From the NCBI GenBank assembly GCA_964632485.1, contig CAZWDO010000004.1:1-64000 (forward strand): a DNA stretch of 64,000 nt, written 5' to 3'. Each line of letters opens with the position of its first letter. The first letter of the stretch is position 1. Made by a program: the position numbers and the translations under genes. The notes under the pieces are model-generated. The model was not told where the DNA came from. It saw only the letters and a program-made list of their open reading frames with translations, and searched no databases. The stretch is from an uncultured bacterium. Lineage in GTDB: Bacteria; JAGOEH01. Positions 20,610-33,221 of this stretch are shown in pieces.

Positions 20610-22169
20610 TCACGGAATTGACCAGATAAAATCTTCTATTTCCCAATAAGGCCGCAATATCAACGTATCGGGAAAAATTTTTAACGGTTCGGCATGGATG
20701 AGGGAATCAGAGCGCAACCAACCGGGATCCCAACATTGATTGCGATGAGTATCATGCCAGGCTATCAATCGGTACCTCCCCGGGCTGATCGAGTTCCAGG
20801 CGAACGTAGAATCGACGGGCAGGGGAAAAACGGTTAAAGATTTTTCCACGATATGATACAGCATAAGCCCCTTCGGGCCCATCTTCCCATCCACACGCCC
20901 GGCCAGAGAAGCGTTGCCCGACTCTTCTTTGATATCGAAATGCAGGGTTTGATCCTGCCACAATGTGTCCAGAAAACTCCACTGAAAACTCAGTTGAAAT
21001 GATGAATCCTGTTGAGGGAAACTCAGCGCCACTCCCAATGGAAGAAGAGAATCCGCCTTCAACGCAAGTGAATCGCCTGGCTTCGTTATCAGAGACGCAA
21101 TTTTTTCCCACCATTGATACCCGACAGGCCGATTAAAAAAAATAGAAACCGACGAGTCCCGCTTTTCTAAGCTTTCAGCATCGGCGATAGCGCGCAACGG
21201 TGGCGGAACATATTCCTCCTGGCGCTCAATTTGTATCAATGTGTCAATTTCCCAGGGATACCCCTTAAATATCAGGCGCATCTTCAAGCGGATAGTGTCA
21301 GCCGACGAATCAACCACCAGATAAATGGAATGATGATCCATTTTCGCCGGAATAGATACAAAGGGGAGCGAATCCGGCATGGATTTGAACTGGCAGCGAA
21401 GCAATTGCGGAGGGTGAAACGTGAATGTGGGGTAGTCTATATGCGAGGGATGGGGAATCAGCGCCAATTCCTCAATGGGGGTTCCCGACGAAACTTTTTT
21501 TGGCGCAACCACATAGTTCTCTTCCCGGCCCGGCAGATTATCCTGATTATCATCAAAAAAAGCGATCAAAAACCAACTGCTATCTTCGGGAAGATACTCA
21601 AATTTAAAATTGCCCTCCTTATCAACCTGGGTCACACGGTATAAATGTTTTCTCAATAAATGAAGTGAGTCCCAGGGAGGGGTGATTAATGCCACCTTTG
21701 GACGAGCCGTGGTTGGATACAGCGCGCTAATTTCTCCTTGCAACGAGCCCAGAGGGATCAGAGCGGAATCGCCAAACGGTAAAACGATGGGACTGGCAAG
21801 CTGGTTTCGATGTAAATCGGCAATTTTATCGGCAAGTTCAAGGACAATAACCTTGGGCAACTCCAGAGTATCGGGCAACGTCACCATCACCCGGTTCCCT
21901 TTTACTTTTTGCCGGAAAGCAATTGGCGGGTATAGAGAAATGCTGCCGGCAACGGAAAGAGGATCAATCGGCTCGGAAAAGGCCAATACGATTTCATGCG
22001 CGTCAACCGTGGAACGGACCGCCGGAGATGCGCCAAGCAATTCGGGTGGGGTTTTATCCTCAGGTCCGCCGGGAGGCGGAGCCATCTTCGCGCAGGACAT
22101 GATAAAAAAAATGACGAAAACCCGGATGCTCCTATTGCCTGATATTCTGTAATTCTTTATAGCGCGCAT
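20610..22169 (-). CDS. Ig-like (Big_5-type) domain lipoprotein
   Basis: Lipobox IMS-C followed by CAKMAPPPGGPEDKTPP, FSEPID, and two prealbumin-like repeats (AFFDDNQD; PGRYRLIAWHD); start uncertain. Confidence 0.8.
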   Translation of the reverse strand: MRAIKNYRISGNRSIRVFVIFFIMSCAKMAPPPGGPEDKTPPELLGASPAVRSTVDAHEIVLAFSEPIDPLSVAGSISLYPPIAFRQKVKGNRVMVTLPDTLELPKVIVLELADKIADLHRNQLASPIVLPFGDSALIPLGSLQGEISALYPTTARPKVALITPPWDSLHLLRKHLYRVTQVDKEGNFKFEYLPEDSSWFLIAFFDDNQDNLPGREENYVVAPKKVSSGTPIEELALIPHPSHIDYPTFTFHPPQLLRCQFKSMPDSLPFVSIPAKMDHHSIYLVVDSSADTIRLKMRLIFKGYPWEIDTLIQIERQEEYVPPPLRAIADAESLEKRDSSVSIFFNRPVGYQWWEKIASLITKPGDSLALKADSLLPLGVALSFPQQDSSFQLSFQWSFLDTLWQDQTLHFDIKEESGNASLAGRVDGKMGPKGLMLYHIVEKSLTVFPLPVDSTFAWNSISPGRYRLIAWHDTHRNQCWDPGWLRSDSLIHAEPLKIFPDTLILRPYWEIEDFIWSIP

Positions 22170-22863
22170 AATATTCTTCCGCCTGGGGCAATTTGAGTTC
22201 CTTATATGAATTGGCCATATAATAGCAGACATCCTTGCAGAACGAGGGTTGATTTTCAATCAGTTGAAAGGTCTCAATCGCGTCTTGAAACTGATGCATT
22301 TCGAAATAAACCACACCTAACAGATAGATAATCTGATGATCCATGGCAGCGATCTTATGCGCATTGGTAAGGGCCCGGCCAGCCTCTTTCAGTAATCCGT
22401 TTTTACGGAGAACGACGCCATGCCAATACCAAAAACTGGCCTTAGATTGATCCAAACGAATTGCTTTACCTATATACTCAGAAGCGTCAAAATAATTGCG
22501 CTCATGATATTTAAGACGCCCCATCAAAAAATAGGCCAGCGCATACTTGGGTTTTTTCGCAAGCGCCGACTTCAATAATTGTTGAGCTTTTTCGAGATTA
22601 TTCAGATTAATCATTATTTTAGTGAATTCGATCAACCACTCATCTTCGCTCAGATGCTCATTTTTCATCTCTTCCAGCAATTGCGCCGCGACTCCCCAAT
22701 TTTCAGAGGTTAGCGCTTCCTGATAGCGGGTGAATGCGTCTTTTGGCAAATCGCGCTTAGAATCGCTTCCTGCCTGATCGGATGCTCCAAAATTGGCGGA
22801 ATCCGGTTTACTCTTAAAATTGGGACTAAAAAGATCTTTAATTTCATGGATGGGATTTTCCAT
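22132..22863 (-). CDS. Tetratricopeptide repeat protein
   Basis: Several TPR-like repeats (AYFLMGRLKY, FWYWHGVVL, IIYLLGVVYF); ATG 7 nt after the PilZ stop. Confidence 0.85.
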   Translation of the reverse strand: MENPIHEIKDLFSPNFKSKPDSANFGASDQAGSDSKRDLPKDAFTRYQEALTSENWGVAAQLLEEMKNEHLSEDEWLIEFTKIMINLNNLEKAQQLLKSALAKKPKYALAYFLMGRLKYHERNYFDASEYIGKAIRLDQSKASFWYWHGVVLRKNGLLKEAGRALTNAHKIAAMDHQIIYLLGVVYFEMHQFQDAIETFQLIENQPSFCKDVCYYMANSYKELKLPQAEEYYARYKELQNIRQ

Positions 22864-22870
22864 AATCCAA

Positions 22871-23254
22871 TTAATCTTGGCGGGGAATGACATTACGATT
22901 GATAATTTCAACAATCAAATCCTGATCGATGATCTCAATCTCCACGAATTTCACAGCCAAAATCATTCCTTCCTGGTCATCAAACGGTTGAATAGTTTGG
23001 CGGATAATATGCGCCATCACAGGGATGATGCGTGATGCCTGAGTTAAAACAATTTCACCATAAAGGCAGCTTCGCGGGTGTAATGGTTCCCCGAGCGCAG
23101 GAGTAAAACAGGCCAGCCCGCCTCCACTGATATTCAAAATACGGCTTTTGGTGAATTGTTCATCAGTTTTAATCCGATAATCACCCAATGCTAACCGTTT
23201 ATAATAAAAAAAACCCAGAAAGTCAAGTCTAAAAAAGTCTCTTTTGTTTTGCAT
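22871..23254 (-). CDS. Stand-alone PilZ domain protein (c-di-GMP receptor)
   Basis: RxxxR (RDFFR) and (D/N)xSxxG (NISGGG) motifs. Confidence 0.88.
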   Translation of the reverse strand: MQNKRDFFRLDFLGFFYYKRLALGDYRIKTDEQFTKSRILNISGGGLACFTPALGEPLHPRSCLYGEIVLTQASRIIPVMAHIIRQTIQPFDDQEGMILAVKFVEIEIIDQDLIVEIINRNVIPRQD

Positions 23255-23260
23255 AACTCT

Positions 23261-23986
23261 CTATTTATACTTTGACCTTAAAATAATTATTTCTACCCGT
23301 CGATTTTTGTTACGATTTTCCGGGGATTCATTATCCACCAGGGGATGGAACTCTCCAAATCCCATTGCTGAAAAGCGGATGGGATCCAGATTGCATTTTT
23401 CGGCGAAAAAACGTACCACATTAGTGGCCCGAATCGCCGAAAGCTCCCAATTAGAAGGAAAACGGGCCGTTCGTATCGGGATGTTATCGGTATGGCCTTC
23501 AATTTGAATATTATAATCCGTTTTGGATATTATCGGATGAATCTGATATAAAAACCGTTGTCCCGGGGGAAGGATGTCCGCTTTACCCGAGCTGAAAAAG
23601 ACCGATTCTGATGCGCGGATTACAATGCCGCGATTGTCAATATTCATCTCAATATTCTCTTCAAGATTCTGATTATGAACAATCTGGCCGATCTGATCCA
23701 AAACTTTGTTTAAATCTTCCAACTCATCCAGATCAATATCGCCCTGCAATCCCAAAGAATCCCTCATCTGAATCAATTCCTGGATTTGATCATTACTTTT
23801 TTTTTCGCCAAACGTCTTTGACATGGAATCCACAAAACCTTGAATCAGACTTTTATTCATGCTGCTGATAGCAAATAACAACACAAAAAAAATCAATAAC
23901 AGCGTCATCATATCAGCATACGTAGTCATCCAGTTATCATCATCCGGTGGAGGATGGGCGGGAAATAGTTTCTTATTTTTTACCAT
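23261..23986 (-). CDS. motB: Stator subunit MotB/PomB with OmpA-like peptidoglycan-binding domain
   Basis: WMTTYADMMTLLLIFFVLL TM with conserved Asp; IEGHTD, SNWELSAIRA, NRRVEI. Confidence 0.95.
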   Translation of the reverse strand: MVKNKKLFPAHPPPDDDNWMTTYADMMTLLLIFFVLLFAISSMNKSLIQGFVDSMSKTFGEKKSNDQIQELIQMRDSLGLQGDIDLDELEDLNKVLDQIGQIVHNQNLEENIEMNIDNRGIVIRASESVFFSSGKADILPPGQRFLYQIHPIISKTDYNIQIEGHTDNIPIRTARFPSNWELSAIRATNVVRFFAEKCNLDPIRFSAMGFGEFHPLVDNESPENRNKNRRVEIIILRSKYK

Positions 23987-23993
23987 AAAGGGA

Positions 23994-24785
23994 TCAGGTG
24001 GCGGAACGTCCGCCGCTATAATGAACGCGGCGCATTTCCGGGGGTAAAAAGGCATTAAGTTTTTTCTCTACAATACGGGGATTAACTCCCTGCTGGATTA
24101 ACAGAATTCCTTCGATGAGGATTGTGGAAAGCAATAATTCGCTATCGGTCATGGACCGAAGTTTTTCAGCAATAGGGAGGCAAAACAGATTCGACAGTAA
24201 GGCGCCATAGAACGTAGTGATAATCGCGACTCCCATTGCGGGGCCGAGCTTCTCCGGCGTAACTCCTAAATCTCCCATTTCCCTCAGCATGGAAACCAAG
24301 CCGATCAATGTTCCAATCATACCGAAAGCCGGCGCCAATTTGGCCATGGTCCGAAAAATCATCTCACCTTCTGAATGACGCATCCTCATCGATTCAATCT
24401 CTGTCTCCAAAACATCCCGAATCAAATCCGGGGGACTCCCGTCAATCACCATTTGCAATCCAGTGCGAATCATGCGATTCTTGATCCGGTTCAGATCCGG
24501 CTCCAGGCTGAGCACGGAGTTTTGACGCGCTTTTATCGATAAAGCAACCATAATTCCTATATATTTATTGTATTCACTCTTTTCACTCTGAAAAATATTC
24601 TTAATTACGCTGAATACCCGGATCACCCGCGGTAAAGGATATGAAATAAAAGTAGCCGCAAACGTGCCGCCAAAAGTAATCATCATTGAGGATAAATCAA
24701 TAAAAATTTTATACCCACCCCGATCAATGATAGCAATCATCATCAGCAATGTTCCAGAGATGATACCGATAATTGTACTTGACAT
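23994..24785 (-). CDS. motA: Stator subunit MotA/PomA
   Basis: ITFGGT, ARQNSVLSLE, GLQMVIDG, APAFGMIGTLIGLV, TTFYG. Confidence 0.95.
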   Translation of the reverse strand: MSSTIIGIISGTLLMMIAIIDRGGYKIFIDLSSMMITFGGTFAATFISYPLPRVIRVFSVIKNIFQSEKSEYNKYIGIMVALSIKARQNSVLSLEPDLNRIKNRMIRTGLQMVIDGSPPDLIRDVLETEIESMRMRHSEGEMIFRTMAKLAPAFGMIGTLIGLVSMLREMGDLGVTPEKLGPAMGVAIITTFYGALLSNLFCLPIAEKLRSMTDSELLLSTILIEGILLIQQGVNPRIVEKKLNAFLPPEMRRVHYSGGRSAT

Positions 24786-24794
24786 AATATCTCC

Positions 24795-26231
24795 CTAATT
24801 ATTTAGACGGACAACCTGGTTATCATGCAGCATAAAGACTGCATTTTGATATATTTCAGTATTGAATAATATACAATTGGCTATTTTTATGGTCAGTGAA
24901 GGATATATTTCCCGGTGAACTTTTAAATAGGGTTGGTCTTCCAATAGCCCGGAAGAGCGGACAACCTGGATTTTGTCTAAGATATTCTGTTGAACCGTGT
25001 GGAGCTGGATTAACTGAAATTCATAATATGCAAACTGTTGCAGTTGGTTATAAAACTTTTTATTCCCTTCCAACAGCATCTGATCATGAATAAAAGCGCA
25101 TCGTTCCGTATGGGTACGGCAATAGTCCGGAAAGGAAAAAGAAATTTTTTTCTGAAGATATTCAATATTCTTTTTCTGGTTTTGAATTTTAAGGGAGACG
25201 ATTTTCAGCAATTTGATCAATTCTTCTGCCTGGTCGCTGACAAAAGGGTCTGAACTAATGGAAATCGAGGTTTTAATGACATCAGGAGAACCTAAATAGG
25301 CAGTTTCAATCGAAGAAACTGAATTGGTGTTGCCGCCGGTAATCCGTCCATTCTTGCCGGTAGCAATTCGTTCTAAAGAATAAGCTTGACAATTCAGGAA
25401 ACCCAGTTCCCCGTAAAGCCTACCGGCAGCTAACAGATAAGCGTCTTTGAATTCCTTGCCACTGATATTACCCATCGCAATCAGCCGGGCCCGGTTTAAA
25501 CCCAATACTCCCTGATGCGCATAAATGGATTCATGGCTAAAAATCGTGGCGCCTTCGATAACACCTTTTACGACAATCGTTCCAGTCGCATTAATCTTAA
25601 AATTTGACATTATTTCGCCATTAATCGTCAAATGGCCATCAAAATCAATATTTCCAGTTTGCGGTCCCACATCTCCGTCAATAATCCGATGAGGTTTGAG
25701 GGTGATATGGCTATCATGACAACTTACCATGCCAACCGAACCGGCAATCGCTTGCCAACCTGCATCCCTACTCTCTACGTTGATATTCGGACCAAAAAAG
25801 AAATGGGGAGATTCTACCGCTCCGGCCAGAGGTTTACCAAAAAGATCAGTTCCATGAAAGGATGTTTCACTGGGGGTCAGCCGAAAAATAGTCTGGCCTT
25901 CCTCAACCTCAAAGGGAATCAATTCAGCAGCCTGGCGAATTTCCTTAGAAAAGGGTACTGCAGTGACCCGGAAATAATCAAACAACGACCCGCTTCCCTG
26001 GCTGATAATAGCGTTTCGAATCGTGAAATTATTCAAAAGCCACGCTAATACCGGGGGACAAATCAAGGGAGTTTTGATACCCTTAAAAATCAGATAACGG
26101 CGGAAATAATCCAGATACAGGGTCTTAAGGTAATCCTTCGGGGGAATTTCCTCCACGATCAACGAAGCTTTTACAGAGGTTTGATCGATTTCGAGTTTAA
26201 AAAAATTTTCAAATTGTGCGAACATGGACAT
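24795..26231 (-). CDS. FapA / DUF342 family protein
   Basis: GTDLFGK, IDGDVGPQTGNIDFDGHL.I.G beta-solenoid, coiled coil, C-terminal IYPSLTIKI. Confidence 0.8.
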   Translation of the reverse strand: MSMFAQFENFFKLEIDQTSVKASLIVEEIPPKDYLKTLYLDYFRRYLIFKGIKTPLICPPVLAWLLNNFTIRNAIISQGSGSLFDYFRVTAVPFSKEIRQAAELIPFEVEEGQTIFRLTPSETSFHGTDLFGKPLAGAVESPHFFFGPNINVESRDAGWQAIAGSVGMVSCHDSHITLKPHRIIDGDVGPQTGNIDFDGHLTINGEIMSNFKINATGTIVVKGVIEGATIFSHESIYAHQGVLGLNRARLIAMGNISGKEFKDAYLLAAGRLYGELGFLNCQAYSLERIATGKNGRITGGNTNSVSSIETAYLGSPDVIKTSISISSDPFVSDQAEELIKLLKIVSLKIQNQKKNIEYLQKKISFSFPDYCRTHTERCAFIHDQMLLEGNKKFYNQLQQFAYYEFQLIQLHTVQQNILDKIQVVRSSGLLEDQPYLKVHREIYPSLTIKIANCILFNTEIYQNAVFMLHDNQVVRLNN

Positions 26232-26283
26232 ACCCTTTTTTATTAATAATCGGAATAAAGGCGATCAAACCTTAAATAAAAAA

Positions 26284-26766
26284 TCATACTTTTAATTTTT
26301 CTTTCAGCAATCCGGCAACCAATGGAGGGACCAGATCCTGCAAAGGAGCATTGAAACATGCTAATTCCTTAACCAATGAAGAATTTAAATAAATATACTC
26401 CTCACGGGGCATCAGAAAAACCGTTTCGACATCAATTGCCATTTTGCGATTCATCAATGCCATTTGGAACTCATATTCAAAATCGGAAAGCGCTCTTAGG
26501 CCGCGTACGATGGCGACCGCCCCCACTTTTCTGACAAAATTGACAATCAAGCCATCATTGGTGGCGATTTTAACCCGGGAATTTTCACTCAGCACTTCTG
26601 AAATCATAGCCACTCGTTCTTCAAGGGAAAAAAGAGGTTTTTTGGCGGCATTGATCGAAATTGTGAGATAAATTTCATCAAAAATTTCAAGGGCGCGTTC
26701 CACCAAATCTATATGCCCGTTTGTAATCGGGTCAAAAGAGCCCGGGTAAACTGCAATTTTCATCAT
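26284..26766 (-). CDS. coaD: Pantetheine-phosphate adenylyltransferase
   Basis: YPGSFDPITNGH, RGLRALSDFEYE, SSLVKE. Confidence 0.98.
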   Translation of the reverse strand: MMKIAVYPGSFDPITNGHIDLVERALEIFDEIYLTISINAAKKPLFSLEERVAMISEVLSENSRVKIATNDGLIVNFVRKVGAVAIVRGLRALSDFEYEFQMALMNRKMAIDVETVFLMPREEYIYLNSSLVKELACFNAPLQDLVPPLVAGLLKEKLKV

Positions 26767-27320
26767 TCGTTCCTTGTCGATAAAATTGTTAGTTGGCTAT
26801 TGCCAATCTTTATTTGACGAATTTCGCAACCATCATCTGCAAGATTTGAAAAAAATGGTTGTCCGCAGGAATGTTCAAAAATAATTAGCCAGTCAGGCAA
26901 GGAATTAGCTATAGCCCAGTGTTTTAAATGCAGTACTACTTCCTCATTCCAGATTTGATAGGGTGGATCAAAATAAAACAAGTGGGCGCGTTCGGATAAT
27001 TGAATCGGACTCCGCAAGAGATCGACCGTGATAAGAAGATACTGATGCTCCGGAATCCGGGTTTTTAACAAATTTTCCTGTAAAACGGAGAGCGCTGTCG
27101 GAGAGTTTTCTATAAAATAGACAAACCGCGCCCCACGGCTGTAGGCTTCCAACCCCCAGGCGCCGGTTCCAGCAAAGGCATCGACCACGACGCAATCGCT
27201 TAAATCTTGTCCTAAAACATTAAAAATTGTCTCTTTAACACGATCAGCAGTAGGCCTGATTTTTTTCCCCGGCAGCGAGATTAACCGCAACCCACGCTTG
27301 AATCCACCTGTAATGCGCAT
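26763..27320 (-). CDS. rsmD: 16S rRNA (G966-N2) methyltransferase RsmD
   Basis: MRITGG, RPTADRVKE, DAFAGTG..GLEA.SRGA, DPPY; usual rsmD-coaD pairing. Confidence 0.93.
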   Translation of the reverse strand: MRITGGFKRGLRLISLPGKKIRPTADRVKETIFNVLGQDLSDCVVVDAFAGTGAWGLEAYSRGARFVYFIENSPTALSVLQENLLKTRIPEHQYLLITVDLLRSPIQLSERAHLFYFDPPYQIWNEEVVLHLKHWAIANSLPDWLIIFEHSCGQPFFSNLADDGCEIRQIKIGNSQLTILSTRNE

Positions 27321-27326
27321 TCCTTA

Positions 27327-27536
27327 CTATAGCCCAAAAAAAATAGAGATCGAATAAAACACACCCACCCAATTCGTTAAAAATGGCAGGTGAATCAAAT
27401 GGAAAAATTGCAGTATCAATAGCGCTCCTAAAATCAGAATACCCAAGTATATTATAATCGAACAGATTCTGATTACTTTATGCCAGAGACTGGCTGGCCG
27501 TTTTTCTATCCGCCAGAAATTTACCGGTTCAATCAT
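27327..27536 (-). CDS. Small membrane protein, possibly a truncated PilN-like anchor
   Basis: 69 aa, overlaps the PilM-like stop; N-terminal VNFW, basic residues, then hydrophobic helices. Confidence 0.55.
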   Translation of the reverse strand: MIEPVNFWRIEKRPASLWHKVIRICSIIIYLGILILGALLILQFFHLIHLPFLTNWVGVFYSISIFFGL

Positions 27537-28413
27537 GAAAATTCCATGCTAAAGCTAAAGGCCCAAGAAAAGCGGCTTCCTGCTGACGGTTAACTAATTG
27601 TTCATAAATTTTTTCCGAGATACTTCCAGTTGTCTCAATATTAAAGGAATAGAGATTCGAAAACCCCTCTTTTCTAAATCCCTCTTCCAACTCGGGGGAA
27701 AGCGTCTGGCCCATTAAAACAAGTCCCTCGAACAAGGAAGGACGCTGGTTCAAATGTATCACGCGTTCCTTGAGGGCATGCGCGATCTCATTTTCATTCT
27801 CTGTTTGAAAACTCTGGATTGCCTCAATCATTTGATTGTAGTATATAAAAAGAGTATGCTCACATTTAACGGAATATAGAAGAATCAGATTTCTTGAAAA
27901 AAGGTGTGGTAAAAATGTCCGAACCAAATGGAATAAATGGTCAGTGACGATAGCCAGACGATGAATTTGGAAATGTTGATCGTAGCAAATTTGCTGAAAA
28001 AGCAAGCGTATCTTCTGCCGAAGACAATAGATTCCCAGAAAATTTTTATCATGAATTGTGTATGGTTCCACATGAGAAACAAAGGCTTTGGGAGGAGAAA
28101 CCAAAAAATAGGGAACTAACCAGGTTTTAATCGCCTCCAGATCGTCAGCGTCAACGGGCTGAGGAAGGGGGATATTGCCCCAAATCAAATATTCTGCGGG
28201 GAGTCCAATTTTTACAATCGACGATTTAAAGGGAATTTTATCGATATGGTCTCTAAAAAAAATTTTCAGCGACGGCTCATCAATCTGCCAATTCTCATTG
28301 ATGAGGTTAGGTATCAATGATTGACCCAGCGCTAATACCTGATTTTTTTTGTTTACTACTACATAGCGGAGAGCATCATGCAAGATTTCTATGCCAATTG
28401 AATTTTTACTCAT
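27529..28413 (-). CDS. Divergent PilM-like (actin-fold) protein
   Basis: N-terminal SIGIEI...LRYVVV, LVLMG, C-terminal FLGPLALA; about 295 aa; near a pilin-like gene. Confidence 0.55.
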   Translation of the reverse strand: MSKNSIGIEILHDALRYVVVNKKNQVLALGQSLIPNLINENWQIDEPSLKIFFRDHIDKIPFKSSIVKIGLPAEYLIWGNIPLPQPVDADDLEAIKTWLVPYFLVSPPKAFVSHVEPYTIHDKNFLGIYCLRQKIRLLFQQICYDQHFQIHRLAIVTDHLFHLVRTFLPHLFSRNLILLYSVKCEHTLFIYYNQMIEAIQSFQTENENEIAHALKERVIHLNQRPSLFEGLVLMGQTLSPELEEGFRKEGFSNLYSFNIETTGSISEKIYEQLVNRQQEAAFLGPLALAWNFHD

Positions 28414-28608
28414 CAATAAGCCTTACTGAAAAAAAATTATCAGTCTGCTCTTCATTCCTGATATATCAAACAAATTCTCTTGTTGCCCATCACGTTTTCT
28501 ATAAATAAACAGATGGCGGAGAGTTATTCTATTCGTCTATTCGTTTGGAAATGGCAATAAAAATGTTACGCCTATTTTCAGACTTCATGAATAGTAGAGT
28601 ATATGCAG

Positions 28609-28641
28609 AAAAAAGAAGAGAGAGCAATACGCTGCTCTCTC
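28609..28641 (-). terminator. Intrinsic terminator of the pilin-like gene
   Basis: Minus strand GAGAGAGCA-gcgtat-TGCTCTCTC followed by TTCTTTTTT. Confidence 0.8.
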
Positions 28642-28664
28642 AAATTTATTGTAACGTACCGTTG

Positions 28665-29123
28665 TTATCTTTGTTCCCAATCTGGAGCGCCGCTTTTAAT
28701 CGTCCCATGTCCATACAAACACTGTAAGATATAATTCTGTTCATCGATTTGGATGTAGCGGCTCCGGGTCGTATCCGTAAAATCCAGCTCATACATCAAC
28801 GAATCCGGCATACCCGCGGGAGTTTCAATGGTATCCCGTTTAAACTTGATAACATAAGTAGCCGAATCGATAGGACAGAAATTAATCTTTTCAATACCAT
28901 CCAGATAGGTTTTCAGATCATCGTAATCGTCAGTATAGCGGTTATTATCGGCATAAAAGAGGCTTTCCGCCTTGGCAATTTCCAGCATATTCCGATGACA
29001 TTTAGTCTCCATCCGACGTTCAAAGCCTAATTTTGGGATGACCAGTGTAACAAAAATGCCGACGACTAATATGACGGCCAGGATTTCAACCAGATTAATA
29101 GGTCCTCTGACTTTTTCAGACAT
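28665..29123 (-). CDS. Type IV pilin-like protein
   Basis: Short leader MSEKVRG, then PINLVEILAVILVVGIFVTLVIP hydrophobic helix and pilin-type helix (MLEIAKAESLFYADNNRY); AGGAGG SD. Confidence 0.75.
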   Translation of the reverse strand: MSEKVRGPINLVEILAVILVVGIFVTLVIPKLGFERRMETKCHRNMLEIAKAESLFYADNNRYTDDYDDLKTYLDGIEKINFCPIDSATYVIKFKRDTIETPAGMPDSLMYELDFTDTTRSRYIQIDEQNYILQCLYGHGTIKSGAPDWEQR

Positions 29124-29155
29124 GCTATCCTCCTGTAAGGGTTGATTTGTTATAT

Positions 29156-29184
29156 ATTATATACTAATTCAACGCTTTTGTCAA
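29156..29184 (-). promoter_or_regulatory. Consensus sigma70 promoter of the pilin-like gene
   Basis: TTGACA-17 bp-TATAAT, exact consensus. Confidence 0.85.
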
Positions 29185-29306
29185 TATTTTTTTTCCCATC
29201 ACTATCAGTTAATTAAAAAAACTTGCAAAAAATAAAAAAAGATATATATTTAAGAGTAAGTTATGGGCGCGGGCATTTTATTAACCTTTTATAACTGAGT
29301 CATTCA

Positions 29307-29789
29307 ATGTCGCAACATATCGTAGGCATCAGCGATGCAAAATTTTCTCTCAGTCATGACGATACGATTATTACCTATTCGCTGGGGTCATGTATTGGCG
29401 CTTCTTTCTATGACCCTTATAAAAGAATCGGCGGAATGATCCATTTAATGCTTCCGGATTCCTCAATCGAGAGCGGCAATCCTAAACTCAATCCTTATAA
29501 GTATGCTGATACCGGCATTCCGATGATGCTCCGCCAGCTCACGCATTTCGGAGCCAATCCCAAGCATCTGATCGTTAAAGTGGCCGGCGCTTCGCAATTA
29601 CTGGATGATAAAAACATTTTTAACATTGGAAAGCGCAATTTGGAGGCTTTCACTCGAATTCTTTATGATTATTCTCTTTCAATATTTAAAATGGATGTGG
29701 GCGGGGGTATAAACCGCACCATAACGTTAAATATTGCAAATGGCATATTGTATCTCCGCAACAGCAAACAGGAATACAAAGAATTATGA
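29307..29789 (+). CDS. cheD: Chemoreceptor glutamine deamidase CheD
   Basis: TYSLGSCIG (catalytic Cys), GMIHLMLP (His), KYADTG, IGKRN, DVGG. Confidence 0.93.
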   Translation: MSQHIVGISDAKFSLSHDDTIITYSLGSCIGASFYDPYKRIGGMIHLMLPDSSIESGNPKLNPYKYADTGIPMMLRQLTHFGANPKHLIVKVAGASQLLDDKNIFNIGKRNLEAFTRILYDYSLSIFKMDVGGGINRTITLNIANGILYLRNSKQEYKEL

Positions 29790-30658
29790 TTACTTCCGAA
29801 GAAATTATCCGGCAAACCCATCGCATCTATACGAATTCCCCAGCCGTCCGGAAAATGGCCCAATTGCTCGAACGCGCAGGCGCCAGGCCAGGAGAGTTTA
29901 TTGAACTGATCAAATTCGATTCGGCTTTAGTGGCAAATCTTTTACACGAGTACTTTAAAAAAAACCAGGGAGACCGTATTGAAAATTTGTGTATGGATAC
30001 AATGCTCCCCCGGTTGGGATTTCTTAACATAAAAAAATTAGTATTGAACAACGCGGTCATGCCCTATTATACACAAACTCTTCCCGGATATGAAGATCGC
30101 CAGGGAGAGTTCTTCCGTCATTCAAACTGCGTTTTTTTTCTGGCTAAGCAGATTGCTGAAAAACTTAATTTTCAAAACAATCATCTCATTTTTTTCGCTT
30201 CGATACTGCATGACATTGGAAAATTATTGATCAGCCAATTCGTCATTATCAATTTTCAGGAACATAAAAATAAGATATATAACAAGCGCATTGCTCTGGA
30301 ACATGCCGAGAAGGAACTGCTGCATATCACTCATGACGATTTGGGAGCCGAATTATTAGAATCCTGGCTCATACCTCAGCCGATTGTGGACATTGTTAAA
30401 TTCCATCACAACGTTGACAGAAAAAAAAGCGATATAGCTCTCAGAATCGTTTCTTTGGCTAATGAATTAAGTTCAACGATCGGATATTCAACATTTTACG
30501 ATGAATTACGCGTACAGCAGATTCCATCCATTATGGAGGAATTGGAGCTGTCCAGCTTTGATATTGAACTCATCTTAGCCAAAGTCGTGGATGAACTCGC
30601 TCTTTTCGAAGCATATTTCAACCCAGAAATGACAGCACAACTTCAGGAACCTGTTTAA
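29786..30658 (+). CDS. HDOD domain protein
   Basis: FFRHS, ILHDIGK, H..LGAELLESW.IP, FHH; ATGA coupling to cheD. Confidence 0.9.
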   Translation: MITSEEIIRQTHRIYTNSPAVRKMAQLLERAGARPGEFIELIKFDSALVANLLHEYFKKNQGDRIENLCMDTMLPRLGFLNIKKLVLNNAVMPYYTQTLPGYEDRQGEFFRHSNCVFFLAKQIAEKLNFQNNHLIFFASILHDIGKLLISQFVIINFQEHKNKIYNKRIALEHAEKELLHITHDDLGAELLESWLIPQPIVDIVKFHHNVDRKKSDIALRIVSLANELSSTIGYSTFYDELRVQQIPSIMEELELSSFDIELILAKVVDELALFEAYFNPEMTAQLQEPV

Positions 30659-33221
30659 GAACCCGCTCAATTTGAGAATGATCATGGATCCCTGCCTGAG
30701 CGAAAGAGGGATTTCCACCCCCTTTGCCGCCACATAACCCCGCCAGAGCTGAAACAATTTTACCTGCGTGGAGTTGTTTTTTCGATTTCTGCAATCCTGA
30801 ATCAATTGTCACGATCATCATCATTTTATCTGAAACACGCCCAAAAAGAACGACAACACTCTGGGAAACCTTATCCCTTACAAAATCCGCCGCTTGCCTA
30901 AACGCTTCCTGCGTAGGAAAATCGTCCTCGCCAACAATAAGATTGATACCTTCCATTTGAAGGGGATTCTGAATTAAATCAGCCATCCGGTAACGAGTCA
31001 TCTGGTTTTCTAATTTTTCAAGCGATTGAGATTTCTGTTTTAACTCTTCAATTATATGCACAATTTTTTCAGGCAAATGCTCAAGATTAACGCTAAGAGT
31101 TTGAGAAATTTGACGCAATACGCCGCTTTCCAACTGAATGTGCTGTAAAGCGGACGATCCGGTTTTCGCCTCTATTCGCCGGACTCCTGCGGCAACAGCT
31201 CCCTCATGAATAATGCGAAACAAGCCCAGTTCACCCGTCCGGTGGCAATGTACACCGCCACAAAGCTCCTTGCTAACAGGGCCAATCGTAATAACTCGAG
31301 CGACTGCATTATATTTTTCACCAAATAAAGCCATTGCCCCCTGGGCTTTAGCCTCCTCGATCGGCAACCAGGCCACATTGACCGGGTAATCAGCCATAAT
31401 CCATTGATTGACTTTTTCTTCAATTCCATTCAGCTCGTCGGGATTCAAAGCATGGAAATGAGTGAAATCAAAACGCAATCGCTCATCATTCACCAAAGAT
31501 CCCGATTGATGGATGTGGACTCCGAACAACTCACGTAAAGCTGCCTGGAGCAAATGAGTGGCCGTATGGTGCCGCGCGATGCAGCTTAACCTCGTATAAT
31601 GAACACTCGCCTTAACCTCGGCGGTTTCTATTTGCCCTTTCAGGCGTCCTTTGTGAATGATACCATCCATTGTTTGCTGCGTGTCGTAAACTTCAATCTC
31701 AAATCCCGGCCCGTTAATCCAGCCGGTATCCCCAATCTGGCCACCCGATTCAGCATAAAAAGGCGTTTCCCTAAGAATTATAGCGATCTCGCCTTCCCGG
31801 GGAATACTATATTTGGCAATCTGAGTGAAAATTTCTCCCTGGTCATAGCCGACATAGCGGGAGTGTTCCTGAGGCGTCAGTTCTATCCAATCATTTGCCA
31901 AATCCATAACAAAACGGCCTGTTTTTCGGGATTGGTCTCGGGCATGGGCCATTTGCTGCTGGAATCCTGTGATATCGACTTCCATCTGATTTTCGGCAGC
32001 AATTAACTGAGTCAGGTCTAATGGAAATCCATAAGTATCATAAAGTGTAAACGCGGCATCTCCCGGGATTTTGCTGATTCCCAGCTCACGATTTTGATCA
32101 AGAATCCGATTGATCAAATGCAATCCTTGTTCTAACGTTCGAAAAAACCGCTCCTCTTCGTTTTGAATCACTAAGCTGATATGCTGGCTCTGGGCTTTCA
32201 GCTCGGGATAGGCCTCACCCAAAATAGTAACAACGGTGGGAACCAACTGGTAAATAAATGGTTGTTTCATATTAAGCTGGTGGCCGTAACGGGCGGCGCG
32301 GCGCAATAATCGCCGCAAGACATATCCCTGGCCATCATTAGAGGGCAACGCACCATCCGCTAAGGCTATGGAAAGAGCTCGCACATGATCAGCAATCACC
32401 CGAAAAGACATACCCTCCAAAGCCGGTTCATAATTTACTCCCGTGATCGACACCAGCTTCTCAATCAACGGCCAGAACAAATCCGTTTCATAGTTAGACT
32501 CTTTACCCTGCAAAATGCTCGCCAGCCGTTCTAATCCCATGCCCGTATCAACGTGCTTGGAGGGGAGCTCCTCTAAAGAGCCATTAGAAAGGCGATTATA
32601 TTGAATGAATACCAGATTCCATATTTCCCAAAAACGGCCTCCATCCCACTCCTTAGATCCTTTAGGGAGTGTGGCAAAGGACTCTCCGCGATCATAGTGG
32701 ATTTCTGAACACGGTCCACAAGGGCCCACATCGCCCATTTCCCAAAAATTATCTTTCATGCCAAATCTGAGGATGTGGCTGGGATCGATATTCGTATAAT
32801 TACGCCAACACTCTTCCGATTCATCATCGTCGTTAAAAACTGTCGCCCATAAACTAACTGCCGGGATTTTTAGCGTGATCGTCAAAAATTCCCAGGCATA
32901 CTGGATCGCTTCTTTCTTATAATAATCGCCAAAAGACCAGTTTCCCAACATCTCAAAAAATGTATGATGACGGCCATCCCTGCCAACTTCTTCCAAATCA
33001 TTGTGTTTCCCACTCACCCGAATGCATTTCTGATAATTAACAGCTCGCTGATAATCGCGTATTTCCTTATTCAAAAAAATTGACTTGAATTGATTCATCC
33101 CGGCATTTGTAAACAACAGCGTGGGATCATCCTTTGGAATAACCGGAGCGCTAGGAACCCACGTATGATCATACGACTGGAAAAACTCCACAAATTTCTT
33201 TCTTAAATCTTGTCCATTCAT
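30618..33221 (-). CDS. alaS: Alanine--tRNA ligase
   Basis: DPTLLFTNAGMNQFK, HHTFFEMLGNWSFGDY, DTGMGLER, HTATH/ELCGGVH editing site, GGKGGG C-Ala domain. Confidence 0.99.
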   Translation of the reverse strand: MNGQDLRKKFVEFFQSYDHTWVPSAPVIPKDDPTLLFTNAGMNQFKSIFLNKEIRDYQRAVNYQKCIRVSGKHNDLEEVGRDGRHHTFFEMLGNWSFGDYYKKEAIQYAWEFLTITLKIPAVSLWATVFNDDDESEECWRNYTNIDPSHILRFGMKDNFWEMGDVGPCGPCSEIHYDRGESFATLPKGSKEWDGGRFWEIWNLVFIQYNRLSNGSLEELPSKHVDTGMGLERLASILQGKESNYETDLFWPLIEKLVSITGVNYEPALEGMSFRVIADHVRALSIALADGALPSNDGQGYVLRRLLRRAARYGHQLNMKQPFIYQLVPTVVTILGEAYPELKAQSQHISLVIQNEEERFFRTLEQGLHLINRILDQNRELGISKIPGDAAFTLYDTYGFPLDLTQLIAAENQMEVDITGFQQQMAHARDQSRKTGRFVMDLANDWIELTPQEHSRYVGYDQGEIFTQIAKYSIPREGEIAIILRETPFYAESGGQIGDTGWINGPGFEIEVYDTQQTMDGIIHKGRLKGQIETAEVKASVHYTRLSCIARHHTATHLLQAALRELFGVHIHQSGSLVNDERLRFDFTHFHALNPDELNGIEEKVNQWIMADYPVNVAWLPIEEAKAQGAMALFGEKYNAVARVITIGPVSKELCGGVHCHRTGELGLFRIIHEGAVAAGVRRIEAKTGSSALQHIQLESGVLRQISQTLSVNLEHLPEKIVHIIEELKQKSQSLEKLENQMTRYRMADLIQNPLQMEGINLIVGEDDFPTQEAFRQAADFVRDKVSQSVVVLFGRVSDKMMMIVTIDSGLQKSKKQLHAGKIVSALAGLCGGKGGGNPSFAQAGIHDHSQIERVLKQVPEVVLSFLG

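Follow-up and report, generated by a model that had tools for sequence, protein, structure and literature searches.

Gene content and layout of the locus

The window analysed here is a stretch of 64,000 nucleotides from the start of contig CAZWDO010000004.1 of an uncultured bacterium. Between positions 20,610 and 30,658 it holds a locus in which a fapA gene, the flagellar stator genes motA and motB and a PilZ gene follow, on the same strand, a pilin-like gene, a PilM-like gene, a gene for a small membrane protein in the position of pilN (mini-PilN) and the housekeeping genes rsmD and coaD. The ten minus-strand open reading frames (ORFs), the pilin-like gene and the divergent cheD-HDOD pair all lie where a first-pass annotation had placed them (Table 1), and the families RsmD, CoaD, FapA, MotA, MotB (with plug and OmpA domain), PilZ, TPR, Big_5, CheD and HDOD were verified with Pfam and NCBIfam. 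The tightness of the run is also borne out: from the PilM-like gene downward the gaps are -8, 6, -4, 52, 9, 7, 6, 7 and -38 bp, taking motB from the ATG at 23986 and the TPR gene from the ATG at 22863. The pilin-like gene, described earlier as lying just upstream, is indeed present, but it stands 251 bp away and has its own promoter and terminator. Among 53 scanned ORFs of the window (alaS, 30618-33221, being left out) there is no member of the fli/flg/flh, cheA/W/Y, pilB/C/Q or methyl-accepting chemotaxis protein families, as had been stated.

The organism belongs, as proposed, to the Fibrobacteres-Chlorobi-Bacteroidetes (FCB) group. Its genome (G000; 4.45 Mb, 98% complete) was compared with those of two relatives, G001, which is fragmented, and G002, the group being Candidatus Delongbacteria.

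Table 1. Genes and signals of the locus, from the pilin-like gene downward and then the divergent pair; positions are those of the window.
Feature	Position	Strand	Remarks
Sigma-70-type promoter of pilin-like gene	29156..29184	-	12/12 consensus, 17-nt spacer
Pilin-like protein, 152 amino acids (aa)	28665..29123	-	Atypical class III-like N-terminus
Intrinsic-terminator-like hairpin with U-tail	28618..28641	-	3' of pilin gene
PilM-like actin-fold protein	27529..28413	-	Probable DUF3822/BT_3980 counterpart by position and fold
69-aa single-helix membrane protein	27327..27536	-	PilN-position gene
rsmD, 16S rRNA methyltransferase	26763..27320	-	PF03602 E 1.5e-34, above cut-off; TIGR00095 E 7.9e-30, under cut-off
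coaD, pantetheine-phosphate adenylyltransferase	26284..26766	-	TIGR01510 above cut-off
Candidate sigma-28-type promoter	26247..26274	-	Head of stator cassette
fapA	24795..26231	-	PF03961 E 1.3e-41; cassette's first gene; third FapA paralogue
motA, distinct clade	23994..24785	-	MotA_N (under cut-off) and MotA_ExbB
motB	23261..23986	-	Conserved Asp D25, plug, OmpA domain
PilZ, single-domain	22871..23254	-	PF07238 above cut-off
TPR protein	22132..22863	-	Without hydrophobic signal; after pilZ only in Delongbacteria
Big_5 Ig-like lipoprotein	20610..22169	-	Flanking gene; family widespread in FCB genomes
cheD	29307..29789	+	Divergent; neighbour in G000 and G001, not G002
HDOD protein	29786..30658	+	Two ORFs in G001; not at this place in G002

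The fapA-motA-motB-pilZ cassette

The stator proteins of the window resemble Vibrio PomAB, whose rotor-contact and sodium-site residues are given in the accessible part of PMC10374538. Mapped by motif, window MotA keeps R87, E95, D115 and R237 at the positions of the PomA rotor-contact residues R88, E96, D114 and R232, that is, four of five, the position of PomA K89 being occupied by Gln. In the same way, T159, T190 and T191 match PomA T158, T185 and T186, and the conserved Asp of MotB matches PomB D24. A further difference from PomAB lies in four additional residues just ahead of the final membrane helix, and in two cassette members found in other phyla the second sodium-site Thr position is Gly. 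The best NCBIfam matches of the window stator are MotP/MotS and PomA, below their cut-offs. Judged from its residues, the window MotAB is likely to be a sodium-type stator.

PilZ domains that bind cyclic di-GMP (c-di-GMP) carry the motifs RxxxR and [DN]xSxxG. The PilZ protein of the cassette keeps RxxxR and NxSxxG in all three Delongbacteria and is likely, on these motifs, to be a c-di-GMP receptor; a sequence search of the PDB with it found no match. The GGDEF motif occurs in 26 ORFs of the host, one of them verified by Pfam.

With its orthologues in the two relatives window MotA shares 80% and 75% identity, against 43-46% with its paralogues, and its best match in 55 other FCB-type genomes reaches 46%. 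The three orthologues form a clade of their own with a long stem (support 100/100). FapA is present in three copies per Delongbacteria genome.

Flagellum and pilus machinery of the host

One of the two earlier interpretations was that of a motor repurposed in a non-flagellated organism. It fails because the organism is flagellated, and a non-flagellated host was rejected on its flagellar and chemotaxis genes. The proposed search for fliF, fliG, flhA and fliC did find flagellar genes, so the host is not flagellum-free: FliG, FlhA and flagellins are present, and the export gate, rod, rings, hook, switch, FliA, CheA, CheW, CheR, CheY and CheB were matched with NCBIfam on contigs C7, C18, C14 and C1, which amounts to a full flagellum and chemotaxis set. 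The rotor (FliG, FliF, FliM) and filament that a stator of this family requires are thus available in the host genome. FlhA and flagellin were also found in both relatives. Besides the window genes, the host has motAB twice more: the main flagellar cluster includes a pair, and another follows a second fapA.

The absence of a pilus motor, for which pilB, pilC and pilQ had been suggested as checks, was confirmed as far as it is detectable in a genome that is 98% complete. The T2SSE assembly ATPase (PilB/PilT family) gave no match in the host genome (the search control was positive in 13 of 14), the platform protein PilC (T2SSF) and prepilin peptidase gave none in the three Delongbacteria genomes, and no secretin was found in the host's own genome, the only one searched for it. 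Nothing in the host genome, the window PilM-like protein included, passes the cut-off of the PilM_2 profile. A complete pilus elsewhere in the genome was therefore not found by these searches.

Several features of the host's other motility genes were recorded. The second fapA-linked MotA (G000:C18:51295-52059, L012/L026; G002:C6, L029) has Ala or Gly in place of the Glu of PomA E96 and a two-residue deletion at that position; it is 70% identical between G000 and G002 and is not followed by PilZ. A third fapA lies inside a cheW-cheR-response regulator-cheY-fapA-cheB operon (G000:C14:90683-95348, L254). The main flagellar cluster holds an extra MinD/FlhG-like gene between flhB and flhA (G000:C7:154626-155543), and membrane ORFs between fliJ and a gene of 1,395 aa (G000:C7:170955-171779).

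The cassette in other phyla

A MotA profile was searched against 401 genomes, 398 of them outside the order, at a threshold of E<=1e-75, and gave 17 matches outside it. Loci were available for 12 of these: seven group with window MotA (FastTree 100), G482 on a long branch, and five do not. The order fapA-motA-motB-pilZ is found in six of the seven outside clade members, the remaining one having pilZ-motA-motB, and PilZ is in the cassette of 10/10 clade members. Metagenome loci L307, near-identical to G340, and L308, near-identical to G001, were not counted as independent. In a survey of FapA, fapA directly before motA was seen in none of the 49 non-Delongbacteria loci.

The outside cassette loci lie in unrelated neighbourhoods of 36-68% GC. 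The proposed synteny of the PilM-like gene with motAB is confined: it is kept in 3/3 Delongbacteria, but none of the seven outside cassette loci has a match to the PilM-like, pilin, rsmD or coaD genes. Besides the cassette, G186 has a motAB of canonical type within its flagellar cluster. In the flagellar cluster of G340, the part of that genome that was searched, no motAB lies between flgE and fliL, and the cassette may therefore be the working stator of that organism.

Two of the outside genomes, G514 and G206, have a pilB/gspE-pilC/gspF pair with an MshEN domain that abuts the cassette tail to tail (L325:4063-13759, L328:10377-13216), and a gene of 490-560 aa stands ahead of fapA in G514, G368 and G206. 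G055 (Latescibacterota) encodes nine FapA-domain proteins of 700-920 aa and has eight FliG_C matches (L173, L182, L186, L190-L195).

The pilin-like, PilM-like and PilN-position genes

The PilM-type fold that had been proposed for the product of 27529-28413 is borne out by Atlas features, the Atlas model and fold searches. The protein has no Pfam match and, in NCBIfam, only an unrelated match under threshold. In the Atlas it falls among PilM_2 clusters from Ignavibacteriota and Bacteroidota (0.95), with template-modelling (TM) scores of 0.73-0.83. Folded as a single sequence it gave an unusable model, with a predicted local distance difference test score (pLDDT) of 39.5; a model from four sequences reached a pLDDT of 57, with good alignment only at residues ~136-267. 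The top fold match in both searches was 3HRG, Bacteroides thetaiotaomicron BT_3980 (Foldseek E 2.4e-4; Z 10.6, root-mean-square deviation 3.4, 111 residues aligned), which we take to be a member of DUF3822, and PilM structures came lower (5eou, Z 7.9; 3jc8, Z 8.2).

Sequence searches with the PilM-like protein returned only itself, or two true relatives and P0004, a repeat-rich match that was dropped as a relative; in the PDB they reached the PilM of the Myxococcus xanthus model at E 0.13 only. Shallow profile comparisons gave nothing, and the match came with 21 sequences. A profile of these 21 positional orthologues ranked the window gene first of 12,492 ORFs of its own genome (E 0.042), and in hhalign the comparison with the positional orthologues gave 95% (E 3.7e-8), with a TPR control below 1%. 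The protein thus appears, by position and modelled fold, to be an orphan PilM-like protein and the counterpart of DUF3822. With DUF3822 it shares the top fold match and the place before rsmD; it differs in lacking a match by hidden Markov model or profile, and no mini-PilN was seen in the Bacteroidales loci. With the PilM-PilN-PilO proteins of type IVa pili it shares the PilM fold and the order pilM then pilN. The differences are that searches gave no match for the ATPase, for PilC, for a secretin or for prepilin peptidase, that PilN is cut after its helix and that the PilM-like protein remains under the PilM_2 cut-off. A literature search for BT_3980 together with PilM gave no match.

PilN proteins begin with an INLL-type motif followed by one membrane helix. 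A literature search on that motif gave no match. The mini-PilN has an N-terminal [IV]NF[LW] motif and a single hydrophobic helix (hydrophobicity peak 2.9); it is PilN-like by position, this motif and the helix only, its profile match not being significant (hhalign 5%). Its length in the three Delongbacteria is 66-72 aa, the chain stopping shortly past the membrane helix, and the periplasmic coiled-coil and core domain of PilN were found in none of them. It is likely to be a PilN anchor truncated before the periplasmic domain.

The pilin-like protein is matched by the GspG model at E 5e-5, under cut-off, and by the Atlas at 0.95, and is 62-64% identical in the two related genomes; a Pfam scan gave no N_methyl match. 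A profile from the Marinimicrobia-phylum loci described below ranks its gene first of 12,492 ORFs (E 2.6e-4; hhalign 94%). Since no prepilin peptidase or secretin was found, no fibre is expected, and the protein is likely to stay uncleaved in the membrane. A TTGACA box lies at a similar place upstream of the gene in both relatives. The terminator-like hairpin has a free energy of -15.3 kcal/mol (z -3.4; 0 of 200 shuffles as good), with a hairpin-like repeat at the matching place in G001 and none in G002.

An old block around rsmD in FCB genomes

The rsmD region was compared in 20 other genomes, none of which has motAB there. Three Marinimicrobia/Fidelibacterota loci have a pilin-like gene, a PilM-sized gene and a small membrane gene, then rsmD-coaD, with a comEA-like gene ahead in two. 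Three loci labelled Ignavibacteria have comEA, a gene of 240-320 aa, rsmD and coaD, and in two further loci comEA is followed by a long pilin-like gene, another long gene and rsmD. In four Bacteroidales loci a DUF3822-sized gene precedes rsmD, with a pilin-like gene ahead in three of the four; all three of the Bacteroidales genes scanned are DUF3822 directly before rsmD, and these genomes have no FliG match. The block is not seen in the other eight regions. The motA of G095, 9 kb from rsmD, was rejected as a linkage, since the two genes differ in strand and are separated by unrelated ones.

A further sample covered 19 loci, out of 50 matches, from the phylum of G045 (Marinimicrobia). The order comEA, pilin, two ORFs, rsmD is found in 18 of the 19, with coaD next in 17. 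The PilN-position genes mostly start with an [IV]NL-type motif, and among 16 of their proteins two have a PilO match, one of them above cut-off. The host has a comEA-like gene elsewhere (C17), weak and under cut-off. Because the block occurs in genomes without FliG or without a FapA match, it predates any stator link, and we infer that it was ancestrally linked to comEA (DNA uptake) and not to motility. Among the competence genes named in the accessible part of PMC8459023, which describes a screen of 3,000 mutants, there is neither a pilin-like nor a DUF3822 gene. From this comparison DUF3822, which is widespread in Bacteroidota, would seem to be a PilM that has degenerated; its partner would be a pilin-like protein and, in the ancestral state, also comEA.

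Other arrangements were also noted. In the phylum of G048, most of 28 loci (L224-L251) have before rsmD a gene for a protein of 400-500 aa that combines a low-complexity linker with a single membrane helix; it may be a fusion of PilM and PilN or a long PilN. In two genomes of Marinimicrobia type a divergent FliG_C match lies about 3 kb from motA, with no FapA match (G045:C12:50443-54496, G052:C46:49825-53838), possibly a stator-rotor pair outside a flagellum.

The junction between block and cassette

Housekeeping genes sit between the pilus block and the stator cassette, and in both relatives a polysaccharide deacetylase gene lies between coaD and fapA. Fast genes of the three Delongbacteria genomes have fallen to 21-26% identity, and the genes for the PilM-like protein, FapA and TPR, among others, drift fast. 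The candidate sigma-28 site at the head of the cassette scores 13/16 against a sigma-28 consensus, and 16 of 2,735 upstream regions are as good; with a matrix derived from the lineage it ranks 1,356 of 2,735 here, 537 in G001 and 18 in G002. A sigma-28-like site lies 43-59 nt ahead of fapA in all three Delongbacteria and is strong in G002.

Interpretation of the locus

We give a probability of roughly 0.7 to the reading that the locus is an accessory, c-di-GMP-regulated stator cassette inserted after coaD, beside an old FCB pilus block. This reading is drawn from gene content, folds, residues, trees and distribution, while ligand binding, ion use and regulation are what we infer from them. The insertion would have taken place in the ancestor of the three Delongbacteria, making the pilus block a neighbour by insertion only. 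MotA and MotB would dock on FliG of the ordinary flagellum as one of three stator types, PilZ would bind c-di-GMP and then engage or remove the stator, and FapA may steady the stator from the cytoplasm. In the block, which would be a remnant, the pilin-like protein would remain uncleaved in the inner membrane and the mini-PilN would hold the PilM-like protein.

Multi-stator systems with PilZ regulators are known from Bacillus subtilis (MotAB/MotPS and MotI) and Pseudomonas aeruginosa (MotAB/MotCD and FlgZ), and MotI and FlgZ, which engage or remove stators, have a role comparable to that proposed here. The window locus is like these systems in its extra motAB outside the main flagellar cluster and in a PilZ protein with c-di-GMP motifs. 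It is unlike them in two respects: a single four-gene cassette, whose MotA proteins form a separate clade spread over several phyla, holds the stator, FapA and PilZ as a fixed set, and one FCB genome has three stator pairs. FapA has no settled molecular role; the cassette connects it, across phyla, with a single type of stator and a single c-di-GMP receptor, and is a compact gene set for asking whether FapA acts on the stator. The parts of the locus are already known from elsewhere; in the accessible parts of the related literature no description of the four-gene cassette or of the PilM-DUF3822 link was met, no search having been aimed at the cassette itself.

Several observations weigh against the reading of an accessory cassette inserted beside an old block. 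The order from the pilin-like gene to Big_5 is whole in both relatives, so that the linkage holds in 3/3 Delongbacteria, and since this joined order was kept despite the low identity of its fast genes, the linkage must be long-lasting. In the host, support for a sigma-28 promoter inside the run is not clear, and read-through from the pilM-rsmD-coaD genes is therefore likely. The assignment of the window PilM-like protein to DUF3822 is by fold and position only: PF12864 (DUF3822) does not match it, profile comparisons gave no match either, and the Z of 3HRG ties with those of FtsA (10.4) and ParM (10.1). A search of G001, a fragmented genome, gave no FliG. In favour of the reading, FliG, FliF, FliI, FlgB and FlgC are present in all six outside cassette genomes tested, G482 being left out. 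Also in its favour, FapA was found within 20 kb of rsmD in none of 45 genomes of another FCB-type phylum, though 38 of these, mostly fragmented assemblies, have fapA and rsmD on different contigs. Together with the 3/3 linkage, the strongest point against it is a preprint on Helicobacter pylori, in the available text of which FapA binds the PilM of the motor cage and affects stator density (10.64898/2026.10.23.761471).

The last observation leads to the other earlier interpretation, a stator with a pilus-derived scaffold, which is weakened: the linkage is kept in both relatives, but the two halves occur apart in many genomes and the PilN-like protein has no periplasmic domain. In a convergent version, the orphan PilM-like protein, anchored by the mini-PilN, would be the cytoplasmic partner of a dedicated FapA and tune a dedicated c-di-GMP-controlled stator, independently of Helicobacter, the operon being kept for it; if true, flagellar motors would have captured PilM twice, on independent occasions. 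The conserved linkage in the three Delongbacteria fits such a cage, and so does the likeness to H. pylori, where a PilM-like protein also occurs in cells that have a flagellum but no pilus motor (PMC10823254, accessible part) and with FapA nearby. In the part of the H. pylori work available, FapA binds PilM in a two-hybrid assay and both co-isolate with MotB. In the host, comEA is no longer in the block, the PilN-position protein has lost its periplasmic part, and the PilM-like protein and FapA both diverge fast, at comparable rates; however, TPR and other genes drift fast too. The cage of H. pylori is, in the accessible text of PMC10823254, mainly periplasmic PilN/PilO, for which the window locus has no gene (no genome-wide search for PilN/PilO was made), and it keeps the pilin-like gene. 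The H. pylori FapA is divergent and, as far as the available text goes, missed by PF03961, whereas that of the window is canonical. Moreover, the window-type block predates the link and occurs without FapA, FliG or flagella in other FCB genomes, and the cassette lacks the pilus block in 7/7 outside loci. A predicted complex of the PilM-like protein with FapA scored 0.00 and was counted neither way. Taken together, such a cage is unlikely.

A brake is distinctly improbable. Here a stator of weak torque would, with PilZ and FapA, occupy or slow the motor at high c-di-GMP, as could be read from the PilZ gene in every cassette of the clade, from the long separate MotA branch with Gln at the position of PomA K89, and from the limit that FapA sets on migration in H. 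pylori in the accessible part of that work. However, MotA retains its ion-site residues and all but one of the five rotor-contact residues, and in G340, with no motAB between flgE and fliL of its flagellar cluster, the cassette may be the working stator.

It is very improbable that the window MotAB powers an ATPase-less pilin module, for instance in pilin movement or DNA uptake: no PilB/PilT-family ATPase was found, the pilin gene is highly conserved with a perfect promoter and a pilB-pilC-type pair abuts the cassette in 2/7 outside genomes, but the FliG-contact residues, plug and OmpA domain are kept, the cassette is seen only in flagellated genomes (6/6 tested), Bacteroidales that have no FliG match and no motAB at the locus keep the pilin block, and, prepilin peptidase and secretin not having been found, no fibre is expected.

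Neighbouring genes

The cheD-HDOD pair was rejected as a fixed part of the locus, as it is not at this place in G002. The HDOD gene of G001 that is split into two ORFs lies at L018:16173-17048. At 340-2500 of the window, a TonB-dependent receptor appears to be spread over three ORFs (plug, middle and barrel) and is perhaps frameshifted.

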